From a virus: a DNA stretch of 22,583 nt. Positions 917 to 22,583 of this stretch are shown in pieces. Each line of letters opens with the position of its first letter. The first letter of the stretch is position 1. The position numbers and the translations under genes were made by a program. The notes under the pieces are model-generated. The model had not been told where the DNA came from and made no database searches. It was given only the letters and a program-made list of their open reading frames with translations. The DNA is taken from the UHGV virus genome UHGV-1292143, one strand, 5' to 3'.

Positions 917-1528
917 TCAAAGAGAAAAACTAAAGCCCAGAAGGGAAGCCAAAGAACTTGAGGATTGGTTAAACGTGCTGTGCAATGCGAAGGTCATTGG
1001 GAATGACTTAAATTCCGTAACCTGATCCCGCGCATAGGTGACATCGCCGGTAGTGACCGGGAATACCGTCATCTCATTTTCCAGTTTGGTTAAGCCGGAA
1101 GACAGCAACCGATAAATACGCACATTGAGCAAATATTTAGACGGTATATTCCCGGTACCGTCCGGATTGATCACCCGACTTTTTGCCGTCTTAAACCAGT
1201 CCAAAACGAGGCCATCAACGGTATCCCTGACCATCATTGTTATCTGCCCAGGCGAACGCTCTGTTGGTTGAAGGATATTCCCTCCGCCGATTTTAATCGT
1301 TTCATATTCGATGCTGTAATCGTGGTAGGTAATGTCTTTGGCAAAGAAGTCTGCCCCCTCCAGTCCATCAACTTCGACAGAGAACTGCCATCCTTGCGCG
1401 AACAGCATTTTGTTCATGATGATTGACGTCAGCTTACCAACTTCCCGCTCACCAACGCCGGAGCCAAATAATGTCGTCGTTAATGCCGAAGATACATAAG
1501 ACTTTACTGAAGCAACATTAAGCCCCAT
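917..1528 (-). CDS. phage structural protein, possibly tail-tube or tube-initiator-like (203 aa)
   Basis: ORF in the operon with 384-902 and 1539-2105. Sequence pattern loosely resembles T4 gp19-type tube proteins; this is a by-eye impression, not a search result. Confidence 0.45.
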   Translation of the reverse strand: MGLNVASVKSYVSSALTTTLFGSGVGEREVGKLTSIIMNKMLFAQGWQFSVEVDGLEGADFFAKDITYHDYSIEYETIKIGGGNILQPTERSPGQITMMVRDTVDGLVLDWFKTAKSRVINPDGTGNIPSKYLLNVRIYRLLSSGLTKLENEMTVFPVTTGDVTYARDQVTEFKSFPMTFALHSTFNQSSSSLASLLGFSFSL

Positions 1529-1538
1529 ATCAGCCCCC

Positions 1539-2146
<608 letters not shown>

Positions 2147-2235
2147 ATGTCATTTGTCCATTGTGCCAACTGTTATTATGGATATCATAATTCATACGAA
2201 TCGCGCTGCTACAGGATGTATAGCAACCTTAATAA

Positions 2236-3495
2236 TTATTTGAATATATCAGTTATAGTTGGGTAATTATACATCTTAAGCTTATCTCTAAATTTCATAG
2301 AAAATATAGGGTCTACCTTACATCTGTGTAAGAGCTTTGCAATCCTTAGCTCCCTCTCATTCATAATATCTTTGTATTCGCTATCAATACTTTCCTGAAT
2401 TTGCTGATTCTCAACAGGAGACGGTTTAGTAATTTTATCCCATTGATAAGTTGGCTTCGTAGTGTAATTTAAACTATCATCATTTTGGAGTAATGCCTCA
2501 AGACGAGACTTAGCATTTTCATATAGCATTCTATCTTGGGGCAACATACTTGCAACACGCATTTCCATTTCAATTTCCGATACTATCATTTCAAGTTGAC
2601 GTTTTTCCGTTTCAATAGCTAAAAGAAATGGAAATAGGGCTTCTTGCTTAATCATTTGACAATTCAAATTATTGTTTATGCCACTAAGTAATTTTGTAAA
2701 TGAGAACTTCTTTAAAGGCTGCTGATTTATAACACTCTGTCTAACTGGCATTGTGTAGTTCGGTGTTTTTTCAAGTGTTTTCTTCACTTGCTCTATAGCA
2801 ACATTAGGAGTGTTGAAAACAGTCTTTGCTGGAATACGTAGCACCATAAACCCCTCCTTTATTGAATATTCATCACGAATACGATCTCGCTCTATTTGTT
2901 CTGGGGATGAATGCCATGCTGCACCATCAATTTCTATAATTTGGCGTCCATTTACGACAAAATCAAAACGATAACGCTTATAGGGCACTTGCATTTCAAG
3001 CACTAAGTCAGGAGAAACTAACATTCCAGATTTAGGTTTAAGATTAAACTCTGCAACCATTTTACGAAGAAATGCCTCCTCAGCCGGAGATTCGCAACCT
3101 TTGCAAAATATATCAAGCCAGTTTTCTGCGTCAGCGTCAACAGTTTGCCACCATGCTAACAGTCCACGTCGGTGTCCATATAATCGTTCATCTGACGGTT
3201 TTGTTAATGGCTTTGTTAACGGTTTAACTAAGGGTTCATTTAACGGCTTTAATAACGGCTTAAATAACGGCTTATTTAACGAATTTAATAACGATTTATT
3301 TAATGGTTTGATTGACGGTCTATTTGACGACTCAATCGGTGGTTTAGATGATGATTTGTTTTTTTTATCAAAACCTACGATAGTTATATATGCTACATAT
3401 AGCATCATGCCTGCAACAGGCCATACACATGGATAAATCACGTAACACAACAGTAATAGAACAATAGTCCCAAAAAATGTTAACTTCTTCCGCAT
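2236..3495 (-). CDS. membrane-anchored protein with DUF559/Vsr-like (PD-(D/E)xK-type) endonuclease-like domain (419 aa)
   Basis: N-terminus MRKK + hydrophobic hairpin (FFGTIVLLLLCYVIYPCVW / MMLYVAYITIVGF); Pro/Lys-rich tetrapeptide repeat linker; core YRFDFVVNGRQIIEIDGAAWHSSPEQIERDRIRDEYSIKEGFMVLRIP matches the DUF559 signature (RxDF ... IEIDG..H ... D..R ... G..VLR); C-terminal ~190 aa predicted helical, unknown. Confidence 0.6.
   Translation of the reverse strand: MRKKLTFFGTIVLLLLCYVIYPCVWPVAGMMLYVAYITIVGFDKKNKSSSKPPIESSNRPSIKPLNKSLLNSLNKPLFKPLLKPLNEPLVKPLTKPLTKPSDERLYGHRRGLLAWWQTVDADAENWLDIFCKGCESPAEEAFLRKMVAEFNLKPKSGMLVSPDLVLEMQVPYKRYRFDFVVNGRQIIEIDGAAWHSSPEQIERDRIRDEYSIKEGFMVLRIPAKTVFNTPNVAIEQVKKTLEKTPNYTMPVRQSVINQQPLKKFSFTKLLSGINNNLNCQMIKQEALFPFLLAIETEKRQLEMIVSEIEMEMRVASMLPQDRMLYENAKSRLEALLQNDDSLNYTTKPTYQWDKITKPSPVENQQIQESIDSEYKDIMNERELRIAKLLHRCKVDPIFSMKFRDKLKMYNYPTITDIFK
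3195..3356 (-). repeat. about 13 imperfect tandem 12-bp units inside the 2236-3495 CDS, encoding K-P-L-x tetrapeptide repeats
   Basis: Plus-strand units such as TTAATAACGGCT / TAAATAACGGCT / TATTTAACGAAT; translated on minus strand as LNKP LFKP LLKP LNEP LVKP LTKP LTKP. Confidence 0.8.
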
Positions 3496-3720
3496 ACCAA
3501 ACTCTTTGCATCAATAAAGGGGACTGGCTTATATAATCAAATCACATGCCCGAAATAAAAGATGACCAACACCAACGGAAATCACACTCTAAACTAATAT
3601 ACATTAACACTTAATATCGCCATCACAATTGATTGATTATGCTAATTTAAAAATGATATTTTTACAGAGAATATACAGCTCTACAAGATGACTATTACAC
3701 CAAAATTTAAAAAAATCATT

Positions 3721-3766
3721 GGCAACCTTGTAGAATTGATATTAACAATCGATTCTACGGGTTGCC
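3721..3766 (-). terminator. long inverted repeat (GGCAACCTTGTAGAAT-N15-ATTCTACGGGTTGCC) followed on the minus strand by a T-run; likely terminator of the 4874-3811 transcript
   Basis: 15-16 bp arms with one mismatch; minus-strand sequence after the hairpin is AATGATTTTTTTAAATTTTGG. The 15-nt loop is large for a terminator. Confidence 0.45.
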
Positions 3767-3810
3767 ATTTGCTACATAGAGTGTAATAAGAGAGGATGGT
3801 TCAACGGAAA

Positions 3811-4350
3811 TTACCACCAGCTACTGGCTTTTTTCTCCCTTGCTTTACCTTCGCTTTGCAATAAATCCTTACTCCCTGAAGAGATGTTACGATTTGCATC
3901 AGCTTCAGACTGAATCACATCAGTTCTTGCAGCCCTTTCCTTTAGCTCCTGCTCAATGAAATCGTTTTCTCTCTTAACTCGAGCAGCTTTCGCTTGTAGC
4001 TCAAGCTTCATTTTCTCAAGTTCTAATTTACGAAGCTCATCTTCATAAGCCTGATTTCGCTTTTTCTCTGCGGTCAATTCAGCTTCACGCTTCGCTCTGC
4101 GCTCATTTTCCGCCGCTATACGAGCTTTCTCGCGGGCATTTGCAGCTGCCGCAGCCCTCTCTCTTCTTAAACGTTCAGCATTTTCTTGCTTGCGAATTTG
4201 CTCTAGTCTGGCATCCTCCAGCTGCTGTTCTCTTGCTCGACCTTCACTTTCTGCCTGGGCAATAGCAGCTATTTGACTCTGCAATGAATTAGCAAATACA
4301 TTGCCTGTATTCAAAGCAGCCAAACATAAATAACAAATAATTTTCTTCAT
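3811..4350 (-). CDS. secreted highly charged ER/K-rich coiled-coil protein (179 aa)
   Basis: N-terminal signal peptide MKKIICYLCLAALNTGNVFA; mature part is E/R/K/A-rich helical (TolA-domain-II-like composition). Starts 11 nt after the stop of the upstream lipoprotein gene. Confidence 0.65.
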   Translation of the reverse strand: MKKIICYLCLAALNTGNVFANSLQSQIAAIAQAESEGRAREQQLEDARLEQIRKQENAERLRRERAAAAANAREKARIAAENERRAKREAELTAEKKRNQAYEDELRKLELEKMKLELQAKAARVKRENDFIEQELKERAARTDVIQSEADANRNISSGSKDLLQSEGKAREKKASSWW

Positions 4351-4361
4351 ATCTTATTGAG

Positions 4362-4874
4362 TTATTTTTTATCAGGACATGTAGCATTAGGTTGAATGCG
4401 CGTTTCGTTTTCTTTCGTTGAAATCAAAGCCGCGATTCCAGGGGCAAATTGGCAAGCTCTACCAACCTGTGTAGATGTATAGACTTTAGTACCTTCCTTG
4501 TAAGTAAGAGATACACCTTCAACAATTGATTTATCACTTACCATAGAACCAGCAGCTGCGCCAAGAGCTCCACCGCCAGCACCACCAGCAACTGCACCCA
4601 AGGTAGAAGTTCCTTTAATATTATATCCAGCAACACTACCAGCTACTGCACCGAGAACAGCACCGAAAGTCTGAGCTGCTTGTTTATTAGCTGTATTATC
4701 AACTTTTACTTTGGCTGGGAGAACAGAGATTATATTTACTACTCTTGTTTCTTGTTTTGAATTAAGTTGGGCTGTGTCGTACACATCTGCCGCATATTCA
4801 GCACCATTAGACTGACACCCTGAGAGAAAAATTGCAGAAACAACCATGACGCATAAAGAAGAAATTTTAGCCAT
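4362..4874 (-). CDS. SlyB/Pcp-like glycine-zipper outer-membrane lipoprotein (about 170 aa from the chosen start)
   Basis: Lipobox AIFLSG|C after a signal peptide; Gly/Ala zipper GAVLGAVAGSVAGYNIKGTSTLGAVAGGAGGGALGAAAGS; overall resemblance to E. coli SlyB. Start chosen at ATG 4872-4874 (MAKISS...); alternatives are 4883 or the track start 4934. Confidence 0.65.
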   Translation of the reverse strand: MAKISSLCVMVVSAIFLSGCQSNGAEYAADVYDTAQLNSKQETRVVNIISVLPAKVKVDNTANKQAAQTFGAVLGAVAGSVAGYNIKGTSTLGAVAGGAGGGALGAAAGSMVSDKSIVEGVSLTYKEGTKVYTSTQVGRACQFAPGIAALISTKENETRIQPNATCPDKK

Positions 4875-5163
4875 TAGAATCATCCCAGAAAAAAAATATA
4901 ATCCAAGAAAATCTATCACATAAGCCAAATACAAACAAGATTAATCCTATTGATGTATATCAATTATTATAAAAAATACGATCTTCATTGCTGAAGCTGC
5001 GTTATATTAAGTCTAAAAAAATCAACTATCGACATTATATGCTCTGCTAATAATTTACACTTGATTTAGTTGAGTTGGTTTAATATTGACACTAACTCAC
5101 TCTCTAATTATATACAATTTCCAATTTTATATGCGCATATATGGAAACCTATACCAACAGCAT

Positions 5164-5180
5164 GTTGCTCTAATAAATTT
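5164..5180 (+). promoter_or_regulatory. C1-repressor-type operator (P1 Op51-like) overlapping a promoter
   Basis: GTTGCTCTAATAAATTT, one mismatch to the P1 C1 operator consensus ATTGCTCTAATAAATTT as I recall it; TTGCTC acts as a -35 with TAAGTC 17 bp downstream (5188-5193). Confidence 0.6.
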
Positions 5181-5218
5181 GTCTTTTTAAGTCACGAATG
5201 CTATCTTTTCGCATCATA

Positions 5219-5247
5219 TTGACCTTTTAATCGTTCAGGCTTATAGT
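5219..5247 (+). promoter_or_regulatory. sigma70-type promoter for c4-icd-ant (-35 TTGACC, 17-bp spacer, -10 TATAGT)
   Basis: TTGACC at 5219-5224 and TATAGT at 5242-5247; sits downstream of the operator, as for the constitutive second promoter of P1 immI. Confidence 0.5.
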
Positions 5248-5367
5248 TCCGCCGTCGTAGCAAATTCTGCGACCGGGTTTAGCAGCCTGAATGATTGTGC
5301 GGACAGCCGCAGATATCCGATATTGCGGTATTTTTGTGTCCGTAAAACCGCGTTACGCCCAAATTAT

Positions 5368-5444
5368 GGTGGGACGTGATGGGGAGGCTTCGGCCTGCTG
5401 GTTTCACAATCGCCAGTCTGCTAACCCCGTCACGTCCTGCCACC
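5368..5444 (+). ncRNA. c4: C4-like antisense RNA (77 nt) of the immunity-I region
   Basis: GGTGGGACGTGATGGGG ... CCCCGTCACGTCCTGCCACC closes a long stem; internal hairpins AGGC-UUCG-GCCU and CUGG-UUUCACAAUCG-CCAG. Loop sequence CACAATC is complementary to GATTGTG at 5293-5299 and at 5477-5483, the latter just upstream of the icd GAGG Shine-Dalgarno (5483-5486). Confidence 0.55.
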
Positions 5445-5494
5445 TGTTTAGCAGCGGGTAGCAGGTTGTTAAACCTGATTGTGAGGCCGTAACT

Positions 5495-5716
5495 ATGGTT
5501 AATGCCAATCCTTACGCACGCCAAGAATTCATCTGGCGTTTCTATTCCTGTAAAAAACACCACTATCACTTCGTCATCGCAGCAACAGAAGACGAAGCAC
5601 GCTCTCAATTGCCTGATGGCCCCTGCATTTTTACTGCCCGTTTTTCAACTAACTCGCGCAATTCACTTAGTTACTGGAACCTCCCCTTCTCTGCCGACGT
5701 TCAGGGGGATTTATGA
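5495..5716 (+). CDS. icd: Icd-like small protein (73 aa), translationally coupled to ant
   Basis: 73-aa ORF whose stop overlaps the ant start (ATGA at 5713-5716); position downstream of c4 matches P1 immI organisation. Confidence 0.65.
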   Translation: MVNANPYARQEFIWRFYSCKKHHYHFVIAATEDEARSQLPDGPCIFTARFSTNSRNSLSYWNLPFSADVQGDL

Positions 5717-6747
5717 AAAAACCTCTCGTCACCCGTAATGAAATAGCCGAAGCGATCGCCCTGCATACAACCTGTATGCCGACACGGGAGATCCCCGGCG
5801 CAATTGCCAACTATTTCATGATAACCAGACGTTTTTATACCCGAACAGATAAGGCTGTGATCAACAAGCTACTGATAGCCGAGATCAGGGATTATTTGAT
5901 TGAACAAGGACGTCTACGTTACGCAACAGTGGCAGCAGAAATGAGAAAGGAGGCACACAGAGTGACCGGTAAAAATTTGAATATTGAAAAACCAGCACCT
6001 GTTACGTCAGCTACGCCAACACCAGCCGTGAATGTCATCCCCAACATCGGAGACACAATCGACAGCCAAACATTGTTGAAGATGGTCAATGAGGCACGGA
6101 AATTATGTAGCGAAAAACCAGTTCGCAATAATGATTTCATTGCCAGAGTTAAGGATGAACTTGAAGGAGAAACCTACGAAATTTTCGTAGGTCAAAAAAA
6201 CGGCGCAGAAATAGATATTATAACAATGACCTACAAACAAGCCCTGCGAGTTGCCGCGCGCGAGTCAAAAGCGGTCCGCCGTTCGCTGATCGACAAACTG
6301 GAAGAATTACAGCAGGCAAACTCCCCTACCCCATCGATCCCCCAGACATTACCAGAAGCCCTACGCCTGGCTGCCGAGTTAGCAGAACAGAAAATGCAGT
6401 TGGAACAACAGCTGGTGGCCGCAGCCCCTAAAGTCGATTTTGCCGACCGGGTATCAGTGGCCAATGGAATCCTGATCGGGAACTTTGCAAAGGTCGTTGG
6501 ACTTAAGCAAAACGCCCTTTTCTCATGGTTGCGCCAGAACGGCATTCTCATGGCTTTTGGTGCGCGCAAAAACGTACCGCGCCAACAGTACATCAACGCC
6601 GGGTATTTCACGGTGAAAGAAGTGGTGTTGGATGATGAAAATGGCTACCAGATACGGCTGACGCCCCAATTAACGGGTAAAGGCCAGCAGTGGTTAACTC
6701 GCAAGCTACTTGATGCTGGTTTGTTAAAACCAGTAGCAATAGGTTAA
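5713..6747 (+). CDS. ant: antirepressor Ant-like protein with C-terminal KilA-C/ANT domain (344 aa)
   Basis: C-terminal region PKVDFADRV...IGNFAKVVG...LFSWLRQNGIL...GYFTVKE...GKGQQWL is a KilA-C-type antirepressor domain; gene order c4-icd-ant. Confidence 0.65.
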   Translation: MKKPLVTRNEIAEAIALHTTCMPTREIPGAIANYFMITRRFYTRTDKAVINKLLIAEIRDYLIEQGRLRYATVAAEMRKEAHRVTGKNLNIEKPAPVTSATPTPAVNVIPNIGDTIDSQTLLKMVNEARKLCSEKPVRNNDFIARVKDELEGETYEIFVGQKNGAEIDIITMTYKQALRVAARESKAVRRSLIDKLEELQQANSPTPSIPQTLPEALRLAAELAEQKMQLEQQLVAAAPKVDFADRVSVANGILIGNFAKVVGLKQNALFSWLRQNGILMAFGARKNVPRQQYINAGYFTVKEVVLDDENGYQIRLTPQLTGKGQQWLTRKLLDAGLLKPVAIG

Positions 6748-6758
6748 CAAAAGAAAAA

Positions 6759-6784
6759 ACCTGCCAGCAAACTGACAGGTTTCT
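6759..6784 (+). terminator. rho-independent terminator after ant
   Basis: ACCTGCCAG-CAAA-CTGACAGGT hairpin (one mismatch) followed by TTCT. Confidence 0.5.
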
Positions 6785-6824
6785 GAGCAGATCGACCAAC
6801 CCGATCTGGATCGAGTTAGAAAAA

Positions 6825-6841
6825 TTTGCTCTAATAAATTT
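6825..6841 (+). promoter_or_regulatory. C1-repressor-type operator (P1 Op53-like) in front of kilA
   Basis: TTTGCTCTAATAAATTT; same extended promoter architecture as at 5164 (TTGCTC ... 17 bp ... TAAGTG). Confidence 0.6.
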
Positions 6842-6910
6842 CGTTTTCTAAGTGCAAAGAATCACCATTTCGAGCTGGTGATTGAAGGTTGATGCAAATT
6901 TGGAGAAAAA

Positions 6911-7711
6911 ATGCAACAAACATTCAATGCGGATATGAATATATCAAACCTTCATCAAAATGTCGATCCTTCAACCACTCTTCCCGTTATTTGTGGTGTT
7001 GAAATTACGACCGACCGCGCTGGCCGTTACAACCTTAATGCTCTACACAGAGCGAGCGGACTCGGTGCCCATAAAGCGCCAGCTCAATGGCTAAGAACGC
7101 TGTCAGCTAAACAGCTCATCGAAGAGCTTGAAAAAGAAACTATGCAGAATTGCATAGTTTCGTTCGAAGGCCGTGGCGGCGGCACTTTTGCCCATGAATT
7201 GCTCGCAGTGGAGTACGCTGGTTGGATTTCTCCCGCGTTTCGGCTGAAGGTAAACCAGACATTTATCGACTATCGAGCTGGAAGATTACAACCTGCTATT
7301 CCGCAGAGTCTCCCTGAAGCTCTCCGTTTGGCTGCCGAACTGGCAGAGCAAAAGCAACGGCTGGAGCAAAAAATGCTTATGGATGCACCTAAAGTCGAAT
7401 TCGCCGAACGCGTTGCTACCGCCAGCGGGGTTCTAATCGGCAACTATGCCAAAGTGCTCGGCCTGGGCCAAAACTATCTCTTCACCTGGTTGCGTGATAA
7501 CGGAATTCTGATCGCAACCGGTGAACGCAGGAACGTCCCCAAACAAGAATACATATCCCGTGGATATTTCACCCTTAAAGAAACCGTGATCGATACAAGC
7601 AATGGAAGCAGGATTTCTTTCACGACTCGTATAACCGGCAAAGGTCAGCAGTGGCTGATGAAGCGATTGCTTGATGCTGGTGTGCTGGTACCTGTCGCGG
7701 CAACGCGCTAA
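6911..7711 (+). CDS. kilA: KilA-like protein: KilA-N domain plus KilA-C domain (266 aa)
   Basis: N-terminal VICGVEITTDRAGRYNLNALHRASGLGAHKAPAQWLRT...FAHELLAVEYAGWISPAFRLKV (KilA-N-like); C-terminal domain about 65% identical to the Ant C-terminus; GGAGA Shine-Dalgarno before the ATG. Confidence 0.7.
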   Translation: MQQTFNADMNISNLHQNVDPSTTLPVICGVEITTDRAGRYNLNALHRASGLGAHKAPAQWLRTLSAKQLIEELEKETMQNCIVSFEGRGGGTFAHELLAVEYAGWISPAFRLKVNQTFIDYRAGRLQPAIPQSLPEALRLAAELAEQKQRLEQKMLMDAPKVEFAERVATASGVLIGNYAKVLGLGQNYLFTWLRDNGILIATGERRNVPKQEYISRGYFTLKETVIDTSNGSRISFTTRITGKGQQWLMKRLLDAGVLVPVAATR

Positions 7712-7740
7712 CAGACGTAGTAAGAACCACCAGCATTGTA

Positions 7741-8241
7741 ATGCTGGCTAAAGTCACTTTCCTGAGCTGTATAACGATGAGCGATTTTACTTTTTCTGGC
7801 TATGAATTGGCCTGCTTTGTAACACACTCCGGTCTATCCCGTAGCGCCGGGCATATCCTGTCGCAATGTGCAAATCTCGCGGCAACAACCAGTGAATACT
7901 TCATTCACAAGCCTCACCGCCTGATCGCGGCAGAAACTGGTTATAGCCAATCAACCGTCGTTCGTGCATTCCGTGAAGCTGTAAACAAAGGAATCCTGTC
8001 TGTAGAGATTGTTATCGGCGATCACCGTGAACGTCGCGCTAACCTGTACCGGTTTACACCATCCTTTTTGGCCTTCGCACAACAAGCCAAAAATGCGCTG
8101 ACTGAAAGCAAATTAAAGATCTCTTCAGCGGCAACCAAGGTTAAAGCTGTTATCGCTAAGACATTGGCTTTATTTAATTTTATATCCACACCCCATGTCA
8201 AAATGATACCCCCTCCCCCTGTCAGGATGACGTGGCAATAA
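7741..8241 (+). CDS. repL: RepL-like lytic replication protein, N-terminal reading frame (166 aa); appears truncated by a frameshift
   Basis: Immediately follows kilA as in P1; frame ends at 8239-8241 just after a CCCCCTCCCCCT tract. Confidence 0.55.
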   Translation: MLAKVTFLSCITMSDFTFSGYELACFVTHSGLSRSAGHILSQCANLAATTSEYFIHKPHRLIAAETGYSQSTVVRAFREAVNKGILSVEIVIGDHRERRANLYRFTPSFLAFAQQAKNALTESKLKISSAATKVKAVIAKTLALFNFISTPHVKMIPPPPVRMTWQ

Positions 8242-8585
8242 AGAATAAGAAGTCACAAGTTAAAAAAACAAAAAGATCAGTTTCCGGCGGTGCCGGAACG
8301 TCCAGACTCAAAAAATTGACTTCATGGATCGCTGAGGCAAAAGCAAAGGCTGACAATCTGCGGTTATCCCAAAAACGCGCTCAAAAACATGAGTTCAAGC
8401 AGAAAGTAGAGGCGGCTGCGCGGAAATATGCTTACCTGAAGAACAAGCGTTCGCCTGATATTGGCGGGATATCAAACTTCGATAACCTACCGCATTGCAT
8501 GACGGTAAACGAAGCTCTTAATGCGGTTTTAGCCAAAAATAAAGATAACGATCAATGGGGTATACCGGCGGGATTCAGAGGGTGA
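8232..8585 (+). CDS. continuation of repL in a different frame (117 aa), or a separate small basic protein
   Basis: Frame is open from 8178 with no ATG. Restoring 1 nt would fuse it to 7741-8241 to give 281 codons, the length I recall for P1 RepL. Confidence 0.4.
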   Translation: MAIKNKKSQVKKTKRSVSGGAGTSRLKKLTSWIAEAKAKADNLRLSQKRAQKHEFKQKVEAAARKYAYLKNKRSPDIGGISNFDNLPHCMTVNEALNAVLAKNKDNDQWGIPAGFRG

Positions 8586-8799
8586 TAGATTGCTCTAATC
8601 TGGAGTCACCTGGCGTTTTCAGTATGGATTTTCTTTGGCGCGGTCTGGCCATTAGGGATCATGTTTGCTGCAACGTTTCTTCTGATGTGGGTATTCACCC
8701 TTCCAGGTGATTTCTATAGAAAAAAAGCCAGACATTGATACAATCGCTGCGGGTGCTTGAGGCTATCTGCTTCAGGCATTACCCGAAAAGCAGATAGAA

Positions 8800-8871
8800 G
8801 AAAGCCCCAGATAACATTACGCGTCCTGCAAGACGCTTAACATTAATCTGAGGCAATATCTATGCTTAGCA
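8800..8871 (-). ncRNA. possible Sok-like antisense RNA
   Basis: Minus-strand promoter-like TTGACC (8901-8906) - 18 bp - TAATCT (8877-8882); the transcript would be complementary to the mok start region at 8862. Inferred from hok/sok architecture only. Confidence 0.3.
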
Positions 8872-9068
8872 TACGTAGATTAGCCTCTTACCGACCAAAA
8901 GGTCAAGGAGAAGCAGGCTATGAAGCAGCAAAAAGCGATGTTAATCGCTCTGATCGTCATCTGTTTAACCGTCATTGTGACGGCACTGGTAACGAGGAAA
9001 GACCTCTGCGAGGTACGAATCCGAACCGGCCAGACGGAGGTCACTGTCTTCACAGCCTACGAATCTGA
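8862..9068 (+). CDS. mok-like leader ORF overlapping hok in another frame
   Basis: 68-aa ORF starting upstream of hok and overlapping it, as in hok/mok/sok loci. Confidence 0.4.
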   Translation: MLSIRRLASYRPKGQGEAGYEAAKSDVNRSDRHLFNRHCDGTGNEERPLRGTNPNRPDGGHCLHSLRI

Positions 9069-9075
9069 AAGGTAA
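8920..9075 (+). CDS. hok: Hok/Gef-family type I toxin (51 aa)
   Basis: MKQQKAMLIALIVICLTVIVTALVTRKDLCEVRIRTGQTEVTVFTAYESER: N-terminal transmembrane helix plus conserved TRKDLCEV and FTAYE motifs; AAGGAG Shine-Dalgarno 9 nt upstream. Confidence 0.85.
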   Translation: MKQQKAMLIALIVICLTVIVTALVTRKDLCEVRIRTGQTEVTVFTAYESER

Positions 9076-9097
9076 GAGACCTGGCGGGGAGAGATCC

Positions 9098-10435
9098 CAT
9101 AAGCGCTAACTTAAGGGTTGAACCATCTGAAGAATGCGACGCCTCGGTGCCTCGTTAAGACGATGCCTCGCGTTCTTCAATTGCGTTTTGTAGGCTGTCA
9201 GGGATACTGTCCCACGAATGGCCACCTGTAAGCTCCAGATGACCATTTTTGTTATTCTCCACAACGAGTTAGTTCTTCTTTTCGGATCCGGCACTTCTGG
9301 GGGGGAAATCCAGCGATGGCTGGATTATGTCGTCAATTAAAAATGCGGCGAGTAGATTAGCAAATATCCACGCTTTCGCGAGTTCAGGTTCCTTTGCACG
9401 CAAAGCATCCAGGTGCAGCAAACTTTTGAGCCGCTTAAAAGCCAGTTCAATTTGCCATCGCAGACGGTAACAATCAGCCACTTGCTCTGCTGAATATTCA
9501 TCTTCCGGTAATGATGTTAGCAATAGCACATGGCCCGCTGCTTCCAGCGTTTCCGCCTGAACTACTCGTCCTTTTCGACGATTCTCGCTGAGCAGTCGGG
9601 TTTTACTGATTAATGCTTTTTCGGGAGGAAGTGATACGGCAATGAGACGTGCCGGAAAGGGAGCTCCGGCTTTTTTATTACCTGAATTGCCTATCATTAC
9701 AGTGGTTTCACCGTTCTTACCGCAATCCAGCCCGCGCAGAAAACCCATCATGTCAAAGCGCATTCCTTCTGCAGTTAACCAGCGCAATCCTCGCCAGTGA
9801 ACCCGGACGATATAATCAGCTTCTCCAAAAGCAAGTGAGCGGATACATTCGGGACGCGAACCGAATCCCCGGTCAGCAATGCGTATCTCGTCTGCCGTTT
9901 GCGCAAATCGGTCCAGCCGTTCAGCGTCTCTGCTGTCGGTTAGCTCAAAATCAGTGAACTGACAGGTATGAGGATCATATCCCATATGTAGTCGCCATTC
10001 AGCGCTGCCGCCCCCGGGCGCACTGATTGCTGTTCCATCGACAAGACGCAATCTCTTTCCGCTTGTACAACCCGTAACTGCGGCGCGTACAGCAAGTGTT
10101 TGTGCGGCAAGTATGCCAAACCAGTCGGCGGCATTCCGCAGCCGCTTCAGGAGAGCCACGTCAGATAATGTTGCAACGTCATGGAGCTGAGCCCATGCAG
10201 TGACTTCACGTAATGACATCCCCCCGGGCCGTAAGCCAGCCCCAGACGTAGCAGAGTTGCAGCATCACGAATTTCGCGGCGGCGGGTTAGAGCCCCGGCA
10301 TTACGTGCCGAAGTATCCAGTTCTTCGGGCTTACCAATATGGGCCAGAATTGCTGACCAGTTATCGTGAGAGTAATTCATCGGCACGTTAAATCATATCA
10401 GGCGTAATACCACAACCCTTAAGTTAGCGCTTATG
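9098..10435 (-). mobile_element. IS186-like insertion sequence (IS4 family), 1338 bp, with a 10-bp target duplication
   Basis: Perfect 23-bp terminal inverted repeats CATAAGCGCTAACTTAAGGGTTG; flanking direct repeat GGAGAGATCC (9088-9097 and 10436-10445) within a GGGG-N-CCCC target, typical for IS186. Confidence 0.85.
9269..10386 (-). pseudogene. IS186 transposase, split by a -1 frameshift in a G-run
   Basis: N-terminal 56 aa (MPMNYSHDNW...GPGG) and the 316-aa DDE body (MSLREV...YRLRWQIELAFKRLK) are in different frames. The junction is a C6 run at 10220-10225 (G6 on the coding strand); restoring one G makes a continuous ~372-codon ORF. Confidence 0.7.
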
Positions 10436-12502: not shown

Positions 12503-14008
12503 TTACTTAATAAGCAGCGGTACGCCCTGGATACGACGGGCTACGCCAGTCGGGCAGCAGGCCCAGACTACTTCCCATTTATCGAATTCCGCCTGCGTAA
12601 CTTTCAGCACATACGGTTCTGTACCGTCAGCATCAGGATCACGAGGAGCCACCAGAGCGCCGGAGGCGACAAAGCGATCCAAAAGTTTGGTCATCCCTTT
12701 AGTCAGGCCAGACTCAGTAATGCCGTCCGGGTTATGCTTCATCTGTCGGGCTAACTGGACAAAGAAACGGCTGATTGCGTTCATCAGGGATGGGACGTGC
12801 TGGAAATGCAGATAGTTGTCCTGCGTGCAGCAAGTTAAAGCATCATCGATGATCATCTGGCCCGAAGTACCTACAGATACTTTATTGAGTCGGCCCTTGA
12901 CCATAGCTTCTTCGTCCGGGGTGTCTTCAGGATACAGCGGCTGAAGTGATGCACGAGCAATGACGGCACGTTCTTCACCAGCCGGTGAGTAATGCCAACC
13001 GCCGACATCGGAGTTTTTCTTGACGCCACGAGCTTTCGCCGCATACGCCGCGCCAGACAGACCGAAGACCACGCGGGATTGGGTCCATTTGTCTTTGCAG
13101 GAGAACGGGAAATGATAGACAGCACAGCTTACATAATCGGTACCAAGTAAACCGGTATCTTCAACAGCAGAGATCGCCGCATTGTCATAGCAACCCAGGC
13201 CGAGAACAGCGGTGTGCATGTACGGCGCATTGTTCAGCACTTTCACCGCACGCAGGTAAGCAGCAGTGGAAATGTTCGACTGATCGCCGTTGGTACCGCC
13301 AGTGAACGCCAGCGATTTTTTATTTGTTACTTTCGCCGTCGAAATCAGCTCTTCATTAACAACCGCGCGCAGATATTTAGAACGGGCTTCCAGAGCCGTA
13401 GGCAGATAACACAAGCGGCCCATGTCATCTTTCGCTTCTTCCGCCAAAGACACAGTGTGTGTCTCCAGGGTCGTTACCACACCGAGCGAAGTCGTCTGGG
13501 TCAGTTTTAAGAGGAAGCGTTCATTACCCGCGCTGTCCGCTGTTGCCGTTTCGATGGTTAACTCACGGGTAGGAGAAATACACGGATCACCATCATCAAC
13601 GTAGATAGCAAAGGCTTCGCCGCTATCAAGTTCAATTTCAGAACCGTATGGCAACGCACTGTAAGCCGGTTCGCCTGATTCATCGAACATAATAATCGGG
13701 AACTTCGCATCATCCGGAACAGCACGGACAACATAACCAGACGTTTGCTGAATAGCTTCGTACACATGGCGAATTGGTTCGAACTGTGAGCCGGAGGACG
13801 GCTTCAGCGGTTCGCCGAGAACATCTTCGTAATTGGACTCAGTAACCGCAAGAACAGTAAACGGCTTGCCACGCGCAAATACGCCAATACCAGCCCACAA
13901 GCTGCTATTTAATGCAACACCGGTAGATAACGTCGCATCGGCATTGATCGGGCTAACAGCGACACCGGATGCATTACCTAATGACTGTTGAATTGAATAT
14001 TGAGACAT
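12503..14008 (-). CDS. large late structural protein (501 aa), possibly tail sheath
   Basis: Size and position between the head-precursor gene and tube-like genes; function is inferred from gene order only. Confidence 0.5.
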   Translation of the reverse strand: MSQYSIQQSLGNASGVAVSPINADATLSTGVALNSSLWAGIGVFARGKPFTVLAVTESNYEDVLGEPLKPSSGSQFEPIRHVYEAIQQTSGYVVRAVPDDAKFPIIMFDESGEPAYSALPYGSEIELDSGEAFAIYVDDGDPCISPTRELTIETATADSAGNERFLLKLTQTTSLGVVTTLETHTVSLAEEAKDDMGRLCYLPTALEARSKYLRAVVNEELISTAKVTNKKSLAFTGGTNGDQSNISTAAYLRAVKVLNNAPYMHTAVLGLGCYDNAAISAVEDTGLLGTDYVSCAVYHFPFSCKDKWTQSRVVFGLSGAAYAAKARGVKKNSDVGGWHYSPAGEERAVIARASLQPLYPEDTPDEEAMVKGRLNKVSVGTSGQMIIDDALTCCTQDNYLHFQHVPSLMNAISRFFVQLARQMKHNPDGITESGLTKGMTKLLDRFVASGALVAPRDPDADGTEPYVLKVTQAEFDKWEVVWACCPTGVARRIQGVPLLIK

Positions 14009-15825: not shown

Positions 15826-15854
15826 ATTTTATTGAAAGTCACTTGTTGACTTTC
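15826..15854 (-). promoter_or_regulatory. candidate late promoter: palindrome GAAAGTCA-N5-TGACTTTC with a TAAAAT -10 hexamer 2 bp downstream
   Basis: Seen on the minus strand about 50 nt upstream of the head-gene start. Architecture (palindrome around -22/-25 plus -10, no -35) resembles P1 Lpa-dependent late promoters as I recall them. Confidence 0.35.
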
Positions 15855-19756: not shown

Positions 19757-19780
19757 AAAACCGGCCAACATAGCCGGTTG
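19755..19780 (-). terminator. rho-independent terminator after the 19793-20185 gene
   Basis: Minus strand AACCGGC-TATGTTG-GCCGGTT followed by TTTTT. Confidence 0.5.
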
Positions 19781-19792
19781 GAAGGAAGGGTA

Positions 19793-20185
19793 TTATTCTA
19801 CGCTTTCGATAAGAAGACCATGTTCATAACATTTAAGCTCATCGCCTTCGTACAGGAATTGGTATCCAATACCACCATTTTCATGGACATTAGGGAATAA
19901 CTCATAACTCACTGAAGAGCAAATCACACCAATGCAGCGATCAACGCCTTCTCGTTCTTCAGTGCTGAAAAAATCCTCTTCGGTAAGGACATGAGTACAT
20001 TGCTCATCAGCATAGGTCGGAAATACATGCTCGATGCAATCCGGGTGTTTTAAACCAAGCTGATCGGCAAGCTCGAAAGCATGACGGTATTGTTCAGATC
20101 CTGGCTTGCCAACAGTGATGTGCTCAATTTTGTAGATTGAAGTTGCTTTGTTGATAGTTTGCTTTACTGTTACTTTATCAGACAT
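19793..20185 (-). CDS. hypothetical protein (130 aa)
   Basis: ORF ending next to oriR; no recognisable motif. Confidence 0.6.
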   Translation of the reverse strand: MSDKVTVKQTINKATSIYKIEHITVGKPGSEQYRHAFELADQLGLKHPDCIEHVFPTYADEQCTHVLTEEDFFSTEEREGVDRCIGVICSSVSYELFPNVHENGGIGYQFLYEGDELKCYEHGLLIESVE

Positions 20186-20196
20186 AAAAATCCCTT

Positions 20197-20448
20197 TTAG
20201 TTACCTCTGATAGCGCGGTTGTAATCATTAACGTTGCGATTCTTCCTGTTAATCCCCATCAGCATCGTTTCTGTATCGAGGATATACGCTGGCAGATCAT
20301 CAAAATATTCACTGCTAAACTCTGGCATCCTGCACATAAATGCACTTTTGGGGGCAGGGTGGTTAACCTTTGTCGGCGTCGGCGTTAAATTCGCTGATCG
20401 ACTGCCGGAGCAACCGCTGAGTGTCAGCAGGAATGCGCTGGCGAACAT
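20197..20448 (-). CDS. o-spanin (Rz1-like outer-membrane lipoprotein), overlapping the i-spanin gene in another frame
   Basis: Signal peptide with lipobox LTLSG|C (MFASAFLLTLSGC), Pro-rich mature part (TPTPTKVNHPAPK); start taken at ATG 20446-20448; overlaps the 3' 86 bp of the i-spanin gene. Confidence 0.6.
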   Translation of the reverse strand: MFASAFLLTLSGCSGSRSANLTPTPTKVNHPAPKSAFMCRMPEFSSEYFDDLPAYILDTETMLMGINRKNRNVNDYNRAIRGN

Positions 20449-20785
20449 TACCCGCCGCAACCAGTTGTTTCTGAACTTCAGCTTTTCGTTCCATTTGCCT
20501 GTCAGCATATTTGGCTTGTTCTGATTCATTTTTCACTTCCTGGCTGTGAAAATGTTGCTCTGCTTTGTTCATCGTCTCAATGGTCTGGTTAAGATCCATT
20601 ATTGACTTATCACGTTCCTTAACAGCCTGATCAAGACTGCCAATTTTCTCCATGGCTTGCTTTAGCTGATGACGTTCCCATGCAAACCCAGCACCAACAA
20701 GTGCGCAAATCAGAACAAGAACACCAGTAGCAGCAAGTTTCTCCTTCAAAGACAAAGCTGTTTTTAACGTAGAAAAGAATGACAT
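20363..20785 (-). CDS. i-spanin (Rz-like): N-terminal transmembrane anchor plus periplasmic coiled coil (140 aa)
   Basis: MSFFSTLKTALSLKEKLAATGVLVLICALVGAGFAW, then coiled-coil region; ATG at 20783-20785 with a strong AGGAGG Shine-Dalgarno (the track start at 20812 is an upstream TTG). Confidence 0.7.
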   Translation of the reverse strand: MSFFSTLKTALSLKEKLAATGVLVLICALVGAGFAWERHQLKQAMEKIGSLDQAVKERDKSIMDLNQTIETMNKAEQHFHSQEVKNESEQAKYADRQMERKAEVQKQLVAAGNVRQRIPADTQRLLRQSISEFNADADKG

Positions 20786-20824
20786 GTCTTCCTCCTGAAG
20801 AAAAATTATCAATGAAGTCCTTTG

Positions 20825-21613
20825 TTACTGTGCCGCTTTGTTTAATTCATCAAGAACAGAATCAGGAACCAAAGCGGCAACTGCGCTGGCTGTGCTGACC
20901 TTATTTGCTGATGCTTCCGCAAGCGCGGTACCGATAGCATGGTTATAAGCAGTTATGGCTACGTTGGCGCTTTCATTCGCTCGTTCATACTGCTGTTGTA
21001 ACGCAGTTGTGGGCGCTGTTGTCTGGTTGAAAACAACCCCAAACTGTTCAGTTGCTACTTTCAGAGATTCAATTTGCTCTTCTGTTAGTGCTGGTGGGGG
21101 AGTGGCAGTGCCGCCGCCTGAACCAGAGCCTGACGAGCTTCCTGAGCCAGTGTTAAGGGTCTGGTTAATCTCCCCCATAGCAGCGACTAAACTTGATGTA
21201 TTAAGCGCGTTAACAGCGTCCTCAAGCGATTTAGTAATATTCACATCACCAATGGCAATAGAGATCGGCAGTTCTGAAACTTCTCGCTCATTAGCACGGC
21301 AGTAAACATCCCAACCAATATCGAGTTGAAGCAGCATTGACAGATCTGCATAACCAGCCAACAGGTCCGCGTGCTTAGTTGCCAGTTCTCCAATGTTCGT
21401 TAAGCCGGTTGTGGTTGTTCTGATCGTTGAAACATAGCTGGTAATAGTGTCGGGATAGACAATTGTATCCAGAATTAATCCGGTCAATTCTTCTGCAAGC
21501 AGTTTTGCTGTGTTAGCACTGTTTCGTGCCGATGTTATGGCACCAGGTGTTTTCATCCCACCGGCGGCGGCCAATTTTTTATATGCGGATAACTGGTAGT
21601 CTTTTTCCAGCAT
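20825..21613 (-). CDS. hypothetical protein with central Gly/Ser-rich linker (262 aa)
   Basis: ATG at 21611-21613 with AGGAGA Shine-Dalgarno, 9 nt after the PAAR-like gene stop; linker NTGSGSSSGSGSGGGTATPPP between two predicted helical domains. Confidence 0.65.
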   Translation of the reverse strand: MLEKDYQLSAYKKLAAAGGMKTPGAITSARNSANTAKLLAEELTGLILDTIVYPDTITSYVSTIRTTTTGLTNIGELATKHADLLAGYADLSMLLQLDIGWDVYCRANEREVSELPISIAIGDVNITKSLEDAVNALNTSSLVAAMGEINQTLNTGSGSSSGSGSGGGTATPPPALTEEQIESLKVATEQFGVVFNQTTAPTTALQQQYERANESANVAITAYNHAIGTALAEASANKVSTASAVAALVPDSVLDELNKAAQ

Positions 21614-21621
21614 GATATCTC

Positions 21622-21906
21622 CTAACTTACCTGAACCAGGCCGTCTCCGGACGCTACGGTAGATCCGCATGAAACAGGGTCACCAACGCATACGATCCCT
21701 TTACCATTGACGGTAAACCATGCCCTGGTTGATATAGCTTGCCCACCGTGCGTACTGTTTCCATCGGTATGCTGTGCATATTGCTTACCATCAACTAACA
21801 CTTCGACTCCGTTGACTTTAAGTAGTGGTTCACTCTCTACAGGAGGCCTGGATGGGAATCCTCCGTGCCCCGAACAAATGCTGTCTTTTGTTGCAATACT
21901 TGCCAC
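21622..21906 (-). CDS. PAAR-like spike-tip protein (94 aa)
   Basis: Three repeats of the PAAR-type motif (ATKDSICSGHGG; AQHTDGNSTHGG; VCVGDPVSCGSTVASGDG); GTG start. Confidence 0.55.
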   Translation of the reverse strand: MASIATKDSICSGHGGFPSRPPVESEPLLKVNGVEVLVDGKQYAQHTDGNSTHGGQAISTRAWFTVNGKGIVCVGDPVSCGSTVASGDGLVQVS

Positions 21907-21986
21907 GTCATCACCAATTATTTGCTCTGGTTTTCGTTATTTTAACTTAGGTTACTTGTGGTCTAAATGGCGTCAACTATTGCATA

Positions 21987-22003
21987 ATTGCTCTAATAAA
22001 TAT
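21987..22003 (+). promoter_or_regulatory. third C1-repressor-type operator/promoter; its downstream gene is interrupted
   Basis: ATTGCTCTAATAAATAT with TATGTC 17 bp after the TTGCTC; same architecture as the operators at 5164 and 6825. Confidence 0.5.
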
Positions 22004-22074
22004 TGTTTTTTATGTCTTGTTTTCGGTACCATTCAGCCATCGCCCTTCAATGGGTATTTGTTTGGAGTCGTCAG

Positions 22075-22147
22075 ATGCAGATGGAGCTAATAAGCCGCAA
22101 AGAGTTCGATAGCCGTGTAACCAGCGGTGAACTCGACAACTTGCAGG
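22075..22147 (+). pseudogene. 5' fragment (about 24 codons) of an operator-controlled gene truncated by IS911-like insertion
   Basis: ATG at 22075 with GGAG upstream; reading frame MQMELISRKEFDSRVTSGELDNLQ runs into the IS end at 22148. Confidence 0.35.
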
Positions 22148-22478
22148 TGAAGTGGTTTACTGAATTTGGCCTCCTGAACAGAGGTGATATGCTCACCTCA
22201 GAACAACACAGGTGCTCCAATGAAAAAAAGAAATTTTAGCGCAGAGTTTAAACGCGAATCCGCTCAACTGGTTGTTGACCAGAAATACACGGTGGCAGAT
22301 GCCGCCAAAGCTATGGATGTTGGCCTTTCCACAATGACAAGATGGGTCAAACAACTGCGTGATGAGCGTCAGGGCAAAACACCAAAAGCCTCTCCGATAA
22401 CACCAGAACAAATCGAAATACGTAAGCTGAGGAAAAAGCTACAACGCATTGAAATGGAGAATGAAATATTAAAAAAGG
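22148..22478 (+). mobile_element. IS911-like (IS3 family) element, left 331 bp only; truncated by IS1
   Basis: Begins TGAAGTGG...; encodes an OrfA almost identical to IS911 OrfA as I recall it; sequence switches to the IS1 terminus at 22479. Confidence 0.75.
22220..22478 (+). CDS. IS3-family (IS911-like) OrfA helix-turn-helix protein, 3'-truncated
   Basis: [86 protein letters not shown], then interrupted. Confidence 0.75.
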
Positions 22479-22583
22479 GGTGATGCTGCCAACTTACTGA
22501 TTTAGTGTATGATGGTGTTTTTGAGGTGCTCCAGTGGCTTCTGTTTCTATCAGCTGTCCCTCCTGTTCAGCTACTGACGGGGT
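22479..22583 (+). mobile_element. IS1 (canonical sequence), left end only; element continues beyond the window
   Basis: GGTGATGCTGCCAACTTACTGATTTAGTGTATGATGGTG... matches the IS1 left terminus exactly as I recall it; insA GTG start at 22534. Confidence 0.9.

Follow-up and report, generated by a model that had tools for sequence, protein, structure and literature searches.

The spike protein gp5 of bacteriophage T4 ends in a β-helix that carries a small cone, gp5.4 (PDB 4KU0, 5IV5), a single-domain protein of ~95 amino acids (aa) with the PAAR fold. The cone is dispensable for assembly and for plaques on standard hosts, but fitness and the infection of deep-rough lipopolysaccharide (LPS) mutants depend on it. 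PAAR proteins of type VI secretion systems (T6SS), such as VCA0105 and c1882 (PDB 4JIV, 4JIW; Pfam PF05488), sharpen the spike and serve as a docking platform. In phage P1 a monomer of UpfC caps the trimeric gp5, for which an atomic model was built by cryo-electron microscopy (PMC12810830, January 2026; PDB 9VYI), and an independent preprint of 2025 on the P1 baseplate also puts UpfC at the needle tip (bioRxiv 2025.07.21.665459). Three trimeric 'tripods' anchored on this tip were assigned to the protein UpfB (PMC12810830). Here we analysed a stretch of 22,583 nucleotides of the virus genome UHGV-1292143 (hereafter the window), in which an earlier note, made from the sequence alone, had singled out two adjacent genes as a possible tip of the spike and a partner attached to it. 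They correspond to P1 upfC and upfB. In our reading, to which we assign a probability of about 0.8, they encode the spike tip and an accessory of this tip, are transcribed together late in the lytic cycle and have a conditional role in infection.

The window was identified by sequence comparison as part of a P1-like (IncY) phage-plasmid of Escherichia coli, because it matches P1 and P7, carries genes known from P1 and is identical in part to IncY plasmids. In megablast searches, positions 257-22147 matched phages P1 and P7 in several pieces with ~97% identity, and the 3 kb around upfC and upfB were 95.5-98.8% identical to P1/P7 at the nucleotide level. The last 684 bases (21900-22583), which include the upfC start and the junction to an insertion sequence (IS), recurred with 100% identity in ~91-kb IncY plasmids from E. 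coli, e.g. pTetA_020022. The neighbours of the gene pair are also those of P1 (ppfA/mlp, upfA, oriR-repA-par, 23, 22). In the P1 genome NC_005856 the minus-strand order, as transcribed, is upfC, upfB, ppfA (overlapping mlp) and upfA, followed by oriR, repA, incA, parA, parB, parS, the capsid gene 23, the sheath gene 22, gene 21, pmgG and the tube gene bplB. The earlier note was thus right that a plasmid module separates the pair from the sheath and tube genes: upfA, oriR, repA, parA, parB and the capsid gene 23 lie in between. In comparison to P1, the window has one substitution in UpfC, a few in UpfB and an IS inserted in uhr, 241 bp upstream of the pair. As these are P1 genes themselves, both proteins are already known.

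UpfC is a PAAR-fold spike-tip protein, as its near-identity to the 9VYI chain and its fold demonstrate. It agrees in 93 of 94 residues with chain A of 9VYI, the entry 'Cryo-EM structure of bacteriophage P1 baseplate', the sole substitution being S86 in the window for A86 in P1. The family phrog_281 matched over the full length (E 2e-30), and phmmer found T4 gp5.4 (E 1e-7) as well as the T6SS protein VCA0105 (E 4e-4). A model calculated by AlphaFold2 from 19 homologues had a mean predicted local distance difference test score (pLDDT) of 96.2 and a predicted template modelling score (pTM) of 0.85. In Foldseek searches with this model, the template modelling (TM) score was 0.97 to 9VYI, 0.93 to the gp5.4-like protein of Klebsiella phage KP1 (9F4B_BA), 0.86 to T4 gp5.4 (4KU0_D), 0.88 to VCA0105 (4JIV_D) and 0.87 to c1882 (4JIW_D), and only 0.31 to the best match outside the PAAR proteins. 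Structure prediction, which the earlier note had proposed as a check, thus returned the PAAR fold for the 94-aa protein.

The 'three PAAR-type repeats' of that note are a loose description, although fold and family are those of PAAR proteins. No literal P-A-A-R tetrapeptide is present in UpfC; the positions of the PAAR motifs in VCA0105 read EVLV and GIVC. The motifs are missing in T4 gp5.4 too, whose membership in the family is accepted. The Pfam model PAAR_motif (PF05488) scored 26.4 bits (E 8.5e-6) on residues 51-91 only, with a gathering cut-off of 27, and most UpfC homologues carry a precomputed match to it. Residues H14, H46, H53 and C80 were invariant in 19-21 homologues down to 40% identity and align with His and Cys residues of VCA0105 (4jiv_D). 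In PAAR structures these positions are the metal ligands, and the alignment indicates that the His3Cys metal site is kept in UpfC.

T4 gp5.4 shares with UpfC the size, the single PAAR-fold domain on a gp5 β-helix, the lack of literal PAAR motifs and the dispensability for plaques. The two proteins are only 28% identical, and the T4 gene adjoins gene 5, whereas P1 upfC is ~9.6 kb away from its gene 5. No tip-bound partner is known for gp5.4, in contrast to UpfB on UpfC, and P1 gp5 is devoid of the lysozyme domain (PMC12810830; Gonzales et al. 2022). The T6SS proteins resemble UpfC in fold, His3Cys positions and role, with identities of only 14-22%, a Pfam score just under the gathering threshold and replaced motifs on the side of UpfC. 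P1 has no T6SS, and UpfB is a non-covalent, helical partner without toxin domain. In P2-type phages, a 94-aa PAAR homologue (43% identity) directly follows the Phage_base_V spike gene, similar to the hub-spike-PAAR order in one distant relative of P1 described below (L098), but an UpfB homologue is absent and the next gene is gpW. For UpfB, no analogue has been characterised in other phages; proteins docked on T6SS PAAR tips come closest as a concept.

Both open reading frames (ORFs) of the earlier note, of 94 and 262 aa, were found on the minus strand. Between the upfC stop codon TAG (21624-21622) and the upfB ATG lie 8 nucleotides, hence the ATG begins 9 nt after the stop, as had been stated, and the Shine-Dalgarno sequence AGGAG of upfB overlaps the upfC stop codon. 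NC_005856 annotates a longer UpfB of 281 aa from an ATG at 21670, inside upfC; the 262-aa form is also used in OP279344. We favour the start of the 262-aa form on the basis of this ribosome-binding site and of homologues which begin with ML(E/D)K...QL and measure 240-265 aa. All 15 aligned homologues start with ML, and Q7 and L8 are invariant.

UpfB is a soluble, acidic protein that is all-helical and contains a Gly/Ser linker predicted to be disordered. It is 91-98% identical to the P1 proteins, has an isoelectric point of 4.5 and is rich in Ala, Thr, Leu and Ser. The long Gly/Ser linker seen by the earlier note is the run GSGSSSGSGSGGG at residues 156-168, followed by TATPPP; AlphaFold assigned a pLDDT <50 to residues 158-169, predicting disorder. 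Its length and composition vary among homologues, with Gly/Thr/Glu in Salmonella types and Pro/Ala in Serratia types. No transmembrane-grade hydrophobic stretch was found in UpfB, the N-terminus included; the maximum 19-residue Kyte-Doolittle average was 1.06, near the C-terminus. The protein has no Pfam family and no enzyme or toxin domain. It matched phrog_1559 ('unknown function') over residues 1-262 (E 7e-138), its structural neighbours were generic helical bundles of 5-15% identity, many of them designed proteins, and a sequence search of the PDB returned only low-complexity Gly/Ser matches. A profile search of 1.84 billion proteins yielded 88 representatives (clusters) of the UpfB family, the complete ones 240-265 aa long. 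The family is uniform in length and shows no fusions to other domains.

The partnership of the two genes was assessed in related genomes. Among IMG/VR P1-like loci, all 80 of 80 keep the order UpfC, 8-nt gap, UpfB, PpfA/Mlp, UpfA, RepA...gp23, which identifies upfC and upfB as real genes and not chance ORFs. In the diverged phage-plasmids of the Serratia type (L003-5) and in L096, the PAAR stop and the UpfB start overlap directly and an Rz-like spanin follows; in L097 the two genes overlap as well. UpfB of the Serratia type is 24% identical (E 7e-18). Two more distant relatives (L009 and L011), whose capsid and sheath proteins are 34-36% identical to those of the window, have lysis-type genes after the PAAR gene, which in L009 include one for an Amidase_3 enzyme. 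Their UpfB gene follows at a distance of 1-3 kb and directly precedes the capsid and sheath genes, with no plasmid genes in between. In a third one (L098, positions 1389-10382), a gp6-like hub (33% identity), a gp5-like spike (36%), a PAAR gene beginning 4 nt after the spike gene, ~2.6 kb of other genes, UpfB, capsid and sheath all follow in one direction. In these three relatives PAAR and UpfB share a strand at distances of 1.1-3.3 kb, and every UpfB-encoding lineage examined has a PAAR gene within ~3.5 kb upstream on the same strand.

We conclude from these gene orders that the tight coupling of upfC and upfB was derived within P1-like phage-plasmids, yet was kept there over large sequence distances. 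UpfB itself seems to be an addition specific to the P1 lineage, as is suggested by the P2-type locus, in which the 43%-identical PAAR gene sits between gpV and gpW and no UpfB homologue is present. In P1, upfC is separated from genes 5 and 6 by ~9.6 kb (uhr-hrdC-dmt-tRNAs-tci-ban-dbn), and upfA is parted from gene 23 by the module for replication and partition. Since the distant relatives keep hub, spike, PAAR, UpfB, capsid and sheath co-directional and free of plasmid genes, the distance of the pair from the tail genes suggests a rearrangement (or insertion) and no separate function, which would explain the odd map position of upfC and upfB.

The same loci provided further observations on the block. 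PAAR gene, UpfB and lysis genes occur together in all P1-lineage relatives examined. In the loci L017-L095 the replication module has been exchanged, with the boundary between upfA and repA, for one or the other of two RepA types (100% or ~42% identity to RepA of the window), with >90% identity in the flanking upfC-upfA block and gene 23, and upfA has a 53%-identical allele in some P1-like loci. In one diverged lineage, the PAAR gene of L097, L100 (1433-1700 in both) and L101 (275-545) is frameshifted in a G-run (4 G), with His14 replaced by Gln, and no stop codon separates its conserved C-terminal part (NDPVSCGS...) from the UpfB ORF, with which it is in frame. Correction of a single base would yield a PAAR-UpfB fusion, and the same sequence was present in two runs of one study; this gene could be a pseudogene, a fusion or a case of recoding. 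In L094 (1592-3706), upfB is broken after residue 221 by ~1.4 kb of extra DNA before ppfA, consistent with dispensability of upfB.

For the expression of the block, the late-promoter pattern AAGTNACTT-N4-TANNNT was rebuilt from the annotated late promoter LP23 (window 15826-15844, AAGTGACTT-TCAA-TAAAAT) and a scan of the whole P1 genome. A promoter was defined by the 9-bp inverted repeat AAGTNACTT centred near -22 and a -10 hexamer upstream of the first gene. The scan returned three perfect matches, upstream of lydA, R and 23, and eight matches with one mismatch, including four upstream of mat, prt, lyz and pacA; by chance, a shuffled genome contained 0 perfect, 2.4 one-mismatch and ~25 two-mismatch matches. 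The candidate site upstream of upfC in the window (Table 1) is closer to the consensus in its -22 box (AAGTAACCT) than its counterpart in P1 (AAATAACCT). The P1 copy has two mismatches, as do the accepted sites upstream of pmgC/sit and 26. Eleven late promoters are counted in the literature for P1; the upfC site could be a twelfth Lpa-dependent promoter, a candidate that would drive upfC-upfB-spanins-upfA. Between upfC and upfA, a consensus scan found no terminator-like site on the minus strand. The co-transcription proposed in the earlier note is in line with this arrangement, that is, an 8-nt gap, a ribosome-binding site overlapping the stop codon, no intervening terminator and a hairpin only after upfA. 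We infer that the upfC-upfB block is transcribed as one late unit. Scans of the upfC/upfB region with Rfam and for repeats revealed nothing relevant.

Table 1 Features of the upfC-upfB block in the window
Feature	Position	Strand	Description
Candidate late promoter	21939..21957	-	Candidate Lpa-dependent site AAGTAACCT-AAGT-TAAAAT, ~30 nt upstream of the upfC GTG; 1 mismatch to the LP23-derived pattern
upfC	21622..21906	-	94-aa PAAR-fold (T4 gp5.4-like) spike-tip protein, GTG start
upfB ribosome-binding site	21619..21623	-	AGGAG, 5 nt before the ATG at 21613; read from the sequence
upfB	20825..21613	-	262-aa acidic all-helical protein with disordered Gly/Ser linker, ATG start; reported tip 'tripod'
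ppfA	20363..20785	-	Rz-like spanin of the inner membrane, gene following upfB; matches phrog_89 'Rz-like spanin' (E 1e-25), P1 annotation
mlp	20197..20529	-	Rz1-like lipoprotein (outer-membrane spanin), overlaps ppfA; phrog_30284 (E 1e-76), P1 annotation 'Rz-like spanin'
upfA	19793..20185	-	130 aa, unknown function, last gene of the block; phrog_1453 (E 2e-61), P1 annotation
Terminator-like hairpin	19759..19779	-	GC hairpin and T-run just after upfA, before oriR; consensus scan

The following course of events is proposed. A single copy of UpfC caps the blunt end of the trimeric gp5 β-helix and provides the spike with a sharp point, which contraction of the sheath drives into the outer membrane, the same job as that of T4 gp5.4. 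UpfB, presumably made from the same mRNA, is reported to trimerise and to stand in three 'tripods' on the cone's faces; with the Gly/Ser run as a flexible hinge, it would assist the device in penetration and would not be a toxin. The block upfC-upfB-ppfA/mlp (spanins)-upfA is probably transcribed late from the degenerate Lpa-type promoter up to the hairpin before oriR. By analogy with T4 gp5.4, which is not required for assembly but is for infection of deep-rough hosts, a conditional role of UpfC and UpfB is to be expected, namely in how efficiently the envelope is penetrated when the host or its LPS is of certain types. The published phenotypes agree with dispensability in the laboratory: deletion of upfC caused no plaque defect (Gonzales et al. 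2022), and both genes were non-essential by CRISPR interference, with neither deletion nor knock-down leading to a plating defect.

The phage-plasmid in the window may no longer produce particles, even though upfC and upfB are intact. The genes would then be idle passengers of a decaying prophage, carried passively. Several features of the window point in this direction. The lytic replication initiator gene repL (7741-8585, plus strand) is split into ORFs of 166 and 117 aa by a 1-bp deletion relative to P1 in a C-run near 8190. The sheath gene 22 (12503-14008, minus strand) carries an in-frame deletion of 28 aa with its junction near 13166, corresponding to P1 residues 282-309 (LGKICADRLIDGFFDVKPTLTYAEALPA); since this segment is kept even in a 36%-identical homologue, the sheath protein gp22 may be defective. 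In the interval from repL to bplB (8751-10219), which in P1 holds rlfA, rlfB and pmgF, rlfA and rlfB have given way to a sok RNA of the hok/sok type (Rfam RF01794, 8751-8925) and to an IS that codes for a DDE_Tnp_1 transposase (9269-10219, minus strand). Homology to P1 ends at 22147 inside uhr, at about codon 24, where an IS3-family element interrupts the gene, and the 684 bases shared without a mismatch with the 91-kb plasmid pTetA_020022 fit a plasmid that is carried along. On the other hand, the repL split may be a real frameshift or a homopolymer sequencing error, upfC and upfB are full-length and 98-99% identical to functional P1, and decay of the element would leave unchanged what the two genes encode. 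We regard idle carriage as unlikely.

The proposal of UpfC as tip and UpfB as tip accessory has to be weighed against a number of observations that speak against it. On the side of expression, the upfC promoter site is degenerate and unannotated in NC_005856, and no late-promoter box was found upstream of the PAAR genes in the distant relatives L003, L009 and L011, so that the promoter call applies to P1-type genomes. The placement of UpfB is weaker than that of UpfC: its map is of medium resolution only, and an AlphaFold3 trimer was fitted to the density instead of being modelled from it, although the fit was described as good (PMC12810830). UpfB is absent from the proteome of 23 proteins obtained by LC-MS/MS (liquid chromatography coupled to tandem mass spectrometry) from CsCl-purified P1. 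It was missed despite nine expected copies and 11 suitable tryptic peptides of 7-28 residues (e.g. EVSELPISIAIGDVNITK and VSTASAVAALVPDSVLDELNK), whereas gp6 with three copies was detected. UpfB is unmentioned in the second baseplate study (bioRxiv 2025.07.21.665459), and in the most distant relatives lysis genes separate the PAAR gene from UpfB, which adjoins the capsid gene. By the earlier note, its reading would fail if neither protein were present in particles; UpfC is part of the 9VYI baseplate, and neither UpfC (Gonzales et al. 2022) nor UpfB was detected in the published LC-MS/MS proteome.

These points would be accommodated if UpfC were the tip and UpfB a non-structural late protein, for example a factor or chaperone of tip assembly or a protein associated with the spanins, and if the tripod density came from another component or had been mis-assigned. 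The position of upfB directly upstream of the spanin genes in P1 and its relatives, the lysis-type genes between PAAR gene and UpfB in L009, L011 and L098 and the lack of a plaque phenotype after upfB deletion are compatible with such a role. However, PmgA, gp5, gp26 and UpfC were also missed by virion LC-MS/MS, and because these are genuine low-copy baseplate proteins, the absence of UpfB does not refute its presence in the virion. Translational coupling of the PAAR and UpfB genes is kept down to 24% identity, and a good fit was reported for the tripod. With a maximum hydrophobicity of 1.06, UpfB is an improbable membrane or periplasmic lysis protein; a periplasmic lysis role was rejected, as the protein has no hydrophobic N-terminal or transmembrane segment. 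Taken together, we consider a non-structural UpfB quite unlikely and retain UpfB as an accessory of the UpfC tip, in agreement with the spike tip and attached partner of the earlier note.

What UpfB does on the tip is a separate matter. The authors of the structure speculated that gp5, UpfC and UpfB jointly make up an apparatus that pierces the membrane (PMC12810830). UpfB might also ride on the PAAR tip and act where it arrives, in the outer membrane or the periplasm, either as a factor for host range or penetration required only with particular LPS or envelope types, or as a protein that is delivered, which we hold to be decidedly improbable. If true, the persistent linkage of UpfB to the PAAR gene and to lysis genes across the P1 lineage would represent a module for envelope entry and exit, and UpfB would be a phage counterpart of the cargo docked on T6SS PAAR proteins. 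A T6SS-style module with UpfB as toxic or enzymatic cargo delivered to a target cell, the effector-like partner considered in the earlier note, was rejected as hardly credible, given a P1 genome with no T6SS genes here and with phage spanins and plasmid replication genes as neighbours, an UpfB with no Pfam, enzyme or toxin domain, no immunity-like partner and only generic, often designed, helical bundles as structural neighbours, and a family of uniform length without domain swapping, unlike polymorphic effectors.

Other parts of the window also differed from P1 or were of separate interest. The genes ppfA and mlp (20197-20812, minus strand) form an overlapping spanin pair of the Rz/Rz1 type that belongs to PHROG lysis families and is located far from the holin and endolysin genes of P1. 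The IS3-family element (22148-22583, plus strand) starts with the inverted repeat TGAAGTGG and contains an orfA with an HTH_Tnp_1 domain (22184-22483), which we take to be IS911-like. In the identical plasmid pTetA_020022, the gene of an IS1D transposase starts ~50 bp before the position of the window end. In the vicinity of sim/immI, where the window diverges from P1, an ORF of 419 aa (2236-3495, minus strand) matched DUF559 and REase_MTES_1575 (endonuclease-like), adjoined by a protein with DUF5384 and an ORF resembling a TraT/Gly-zipper lipoprotein. Rfam showed the C4 antisense RNA of the P1 immI region, along with its a1/b1 target sites, to be present and intact (5241-5447, plus strand).

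UpfC was predicted to be gp5.4-like in the original annotation of P1 and again in 2022 by HHpred (Gonzales et al. 2022), and was solved in PDB 9VYI, released in 2025. The assignment of UpfB to the tripod in January 2026 is the weak link of the tip model, with a density of medium resolution, no support from mass spectrometry and no phenotype. The contribution of the present analysis is an independent genomic support for the partnership of UpfC and UpfB, which comprises the 8-nt spacing in 80 of 80 loci, the direct overlap of stop and start codons at 24% UpfB identity and the co-occurrence of both genes in all lineages examined. If UpfB is indeed bound to the tip as an accessory of a phage PAAR protein, it would be the first analogue among phages to the proteins docked on T6SS PAAR tips.

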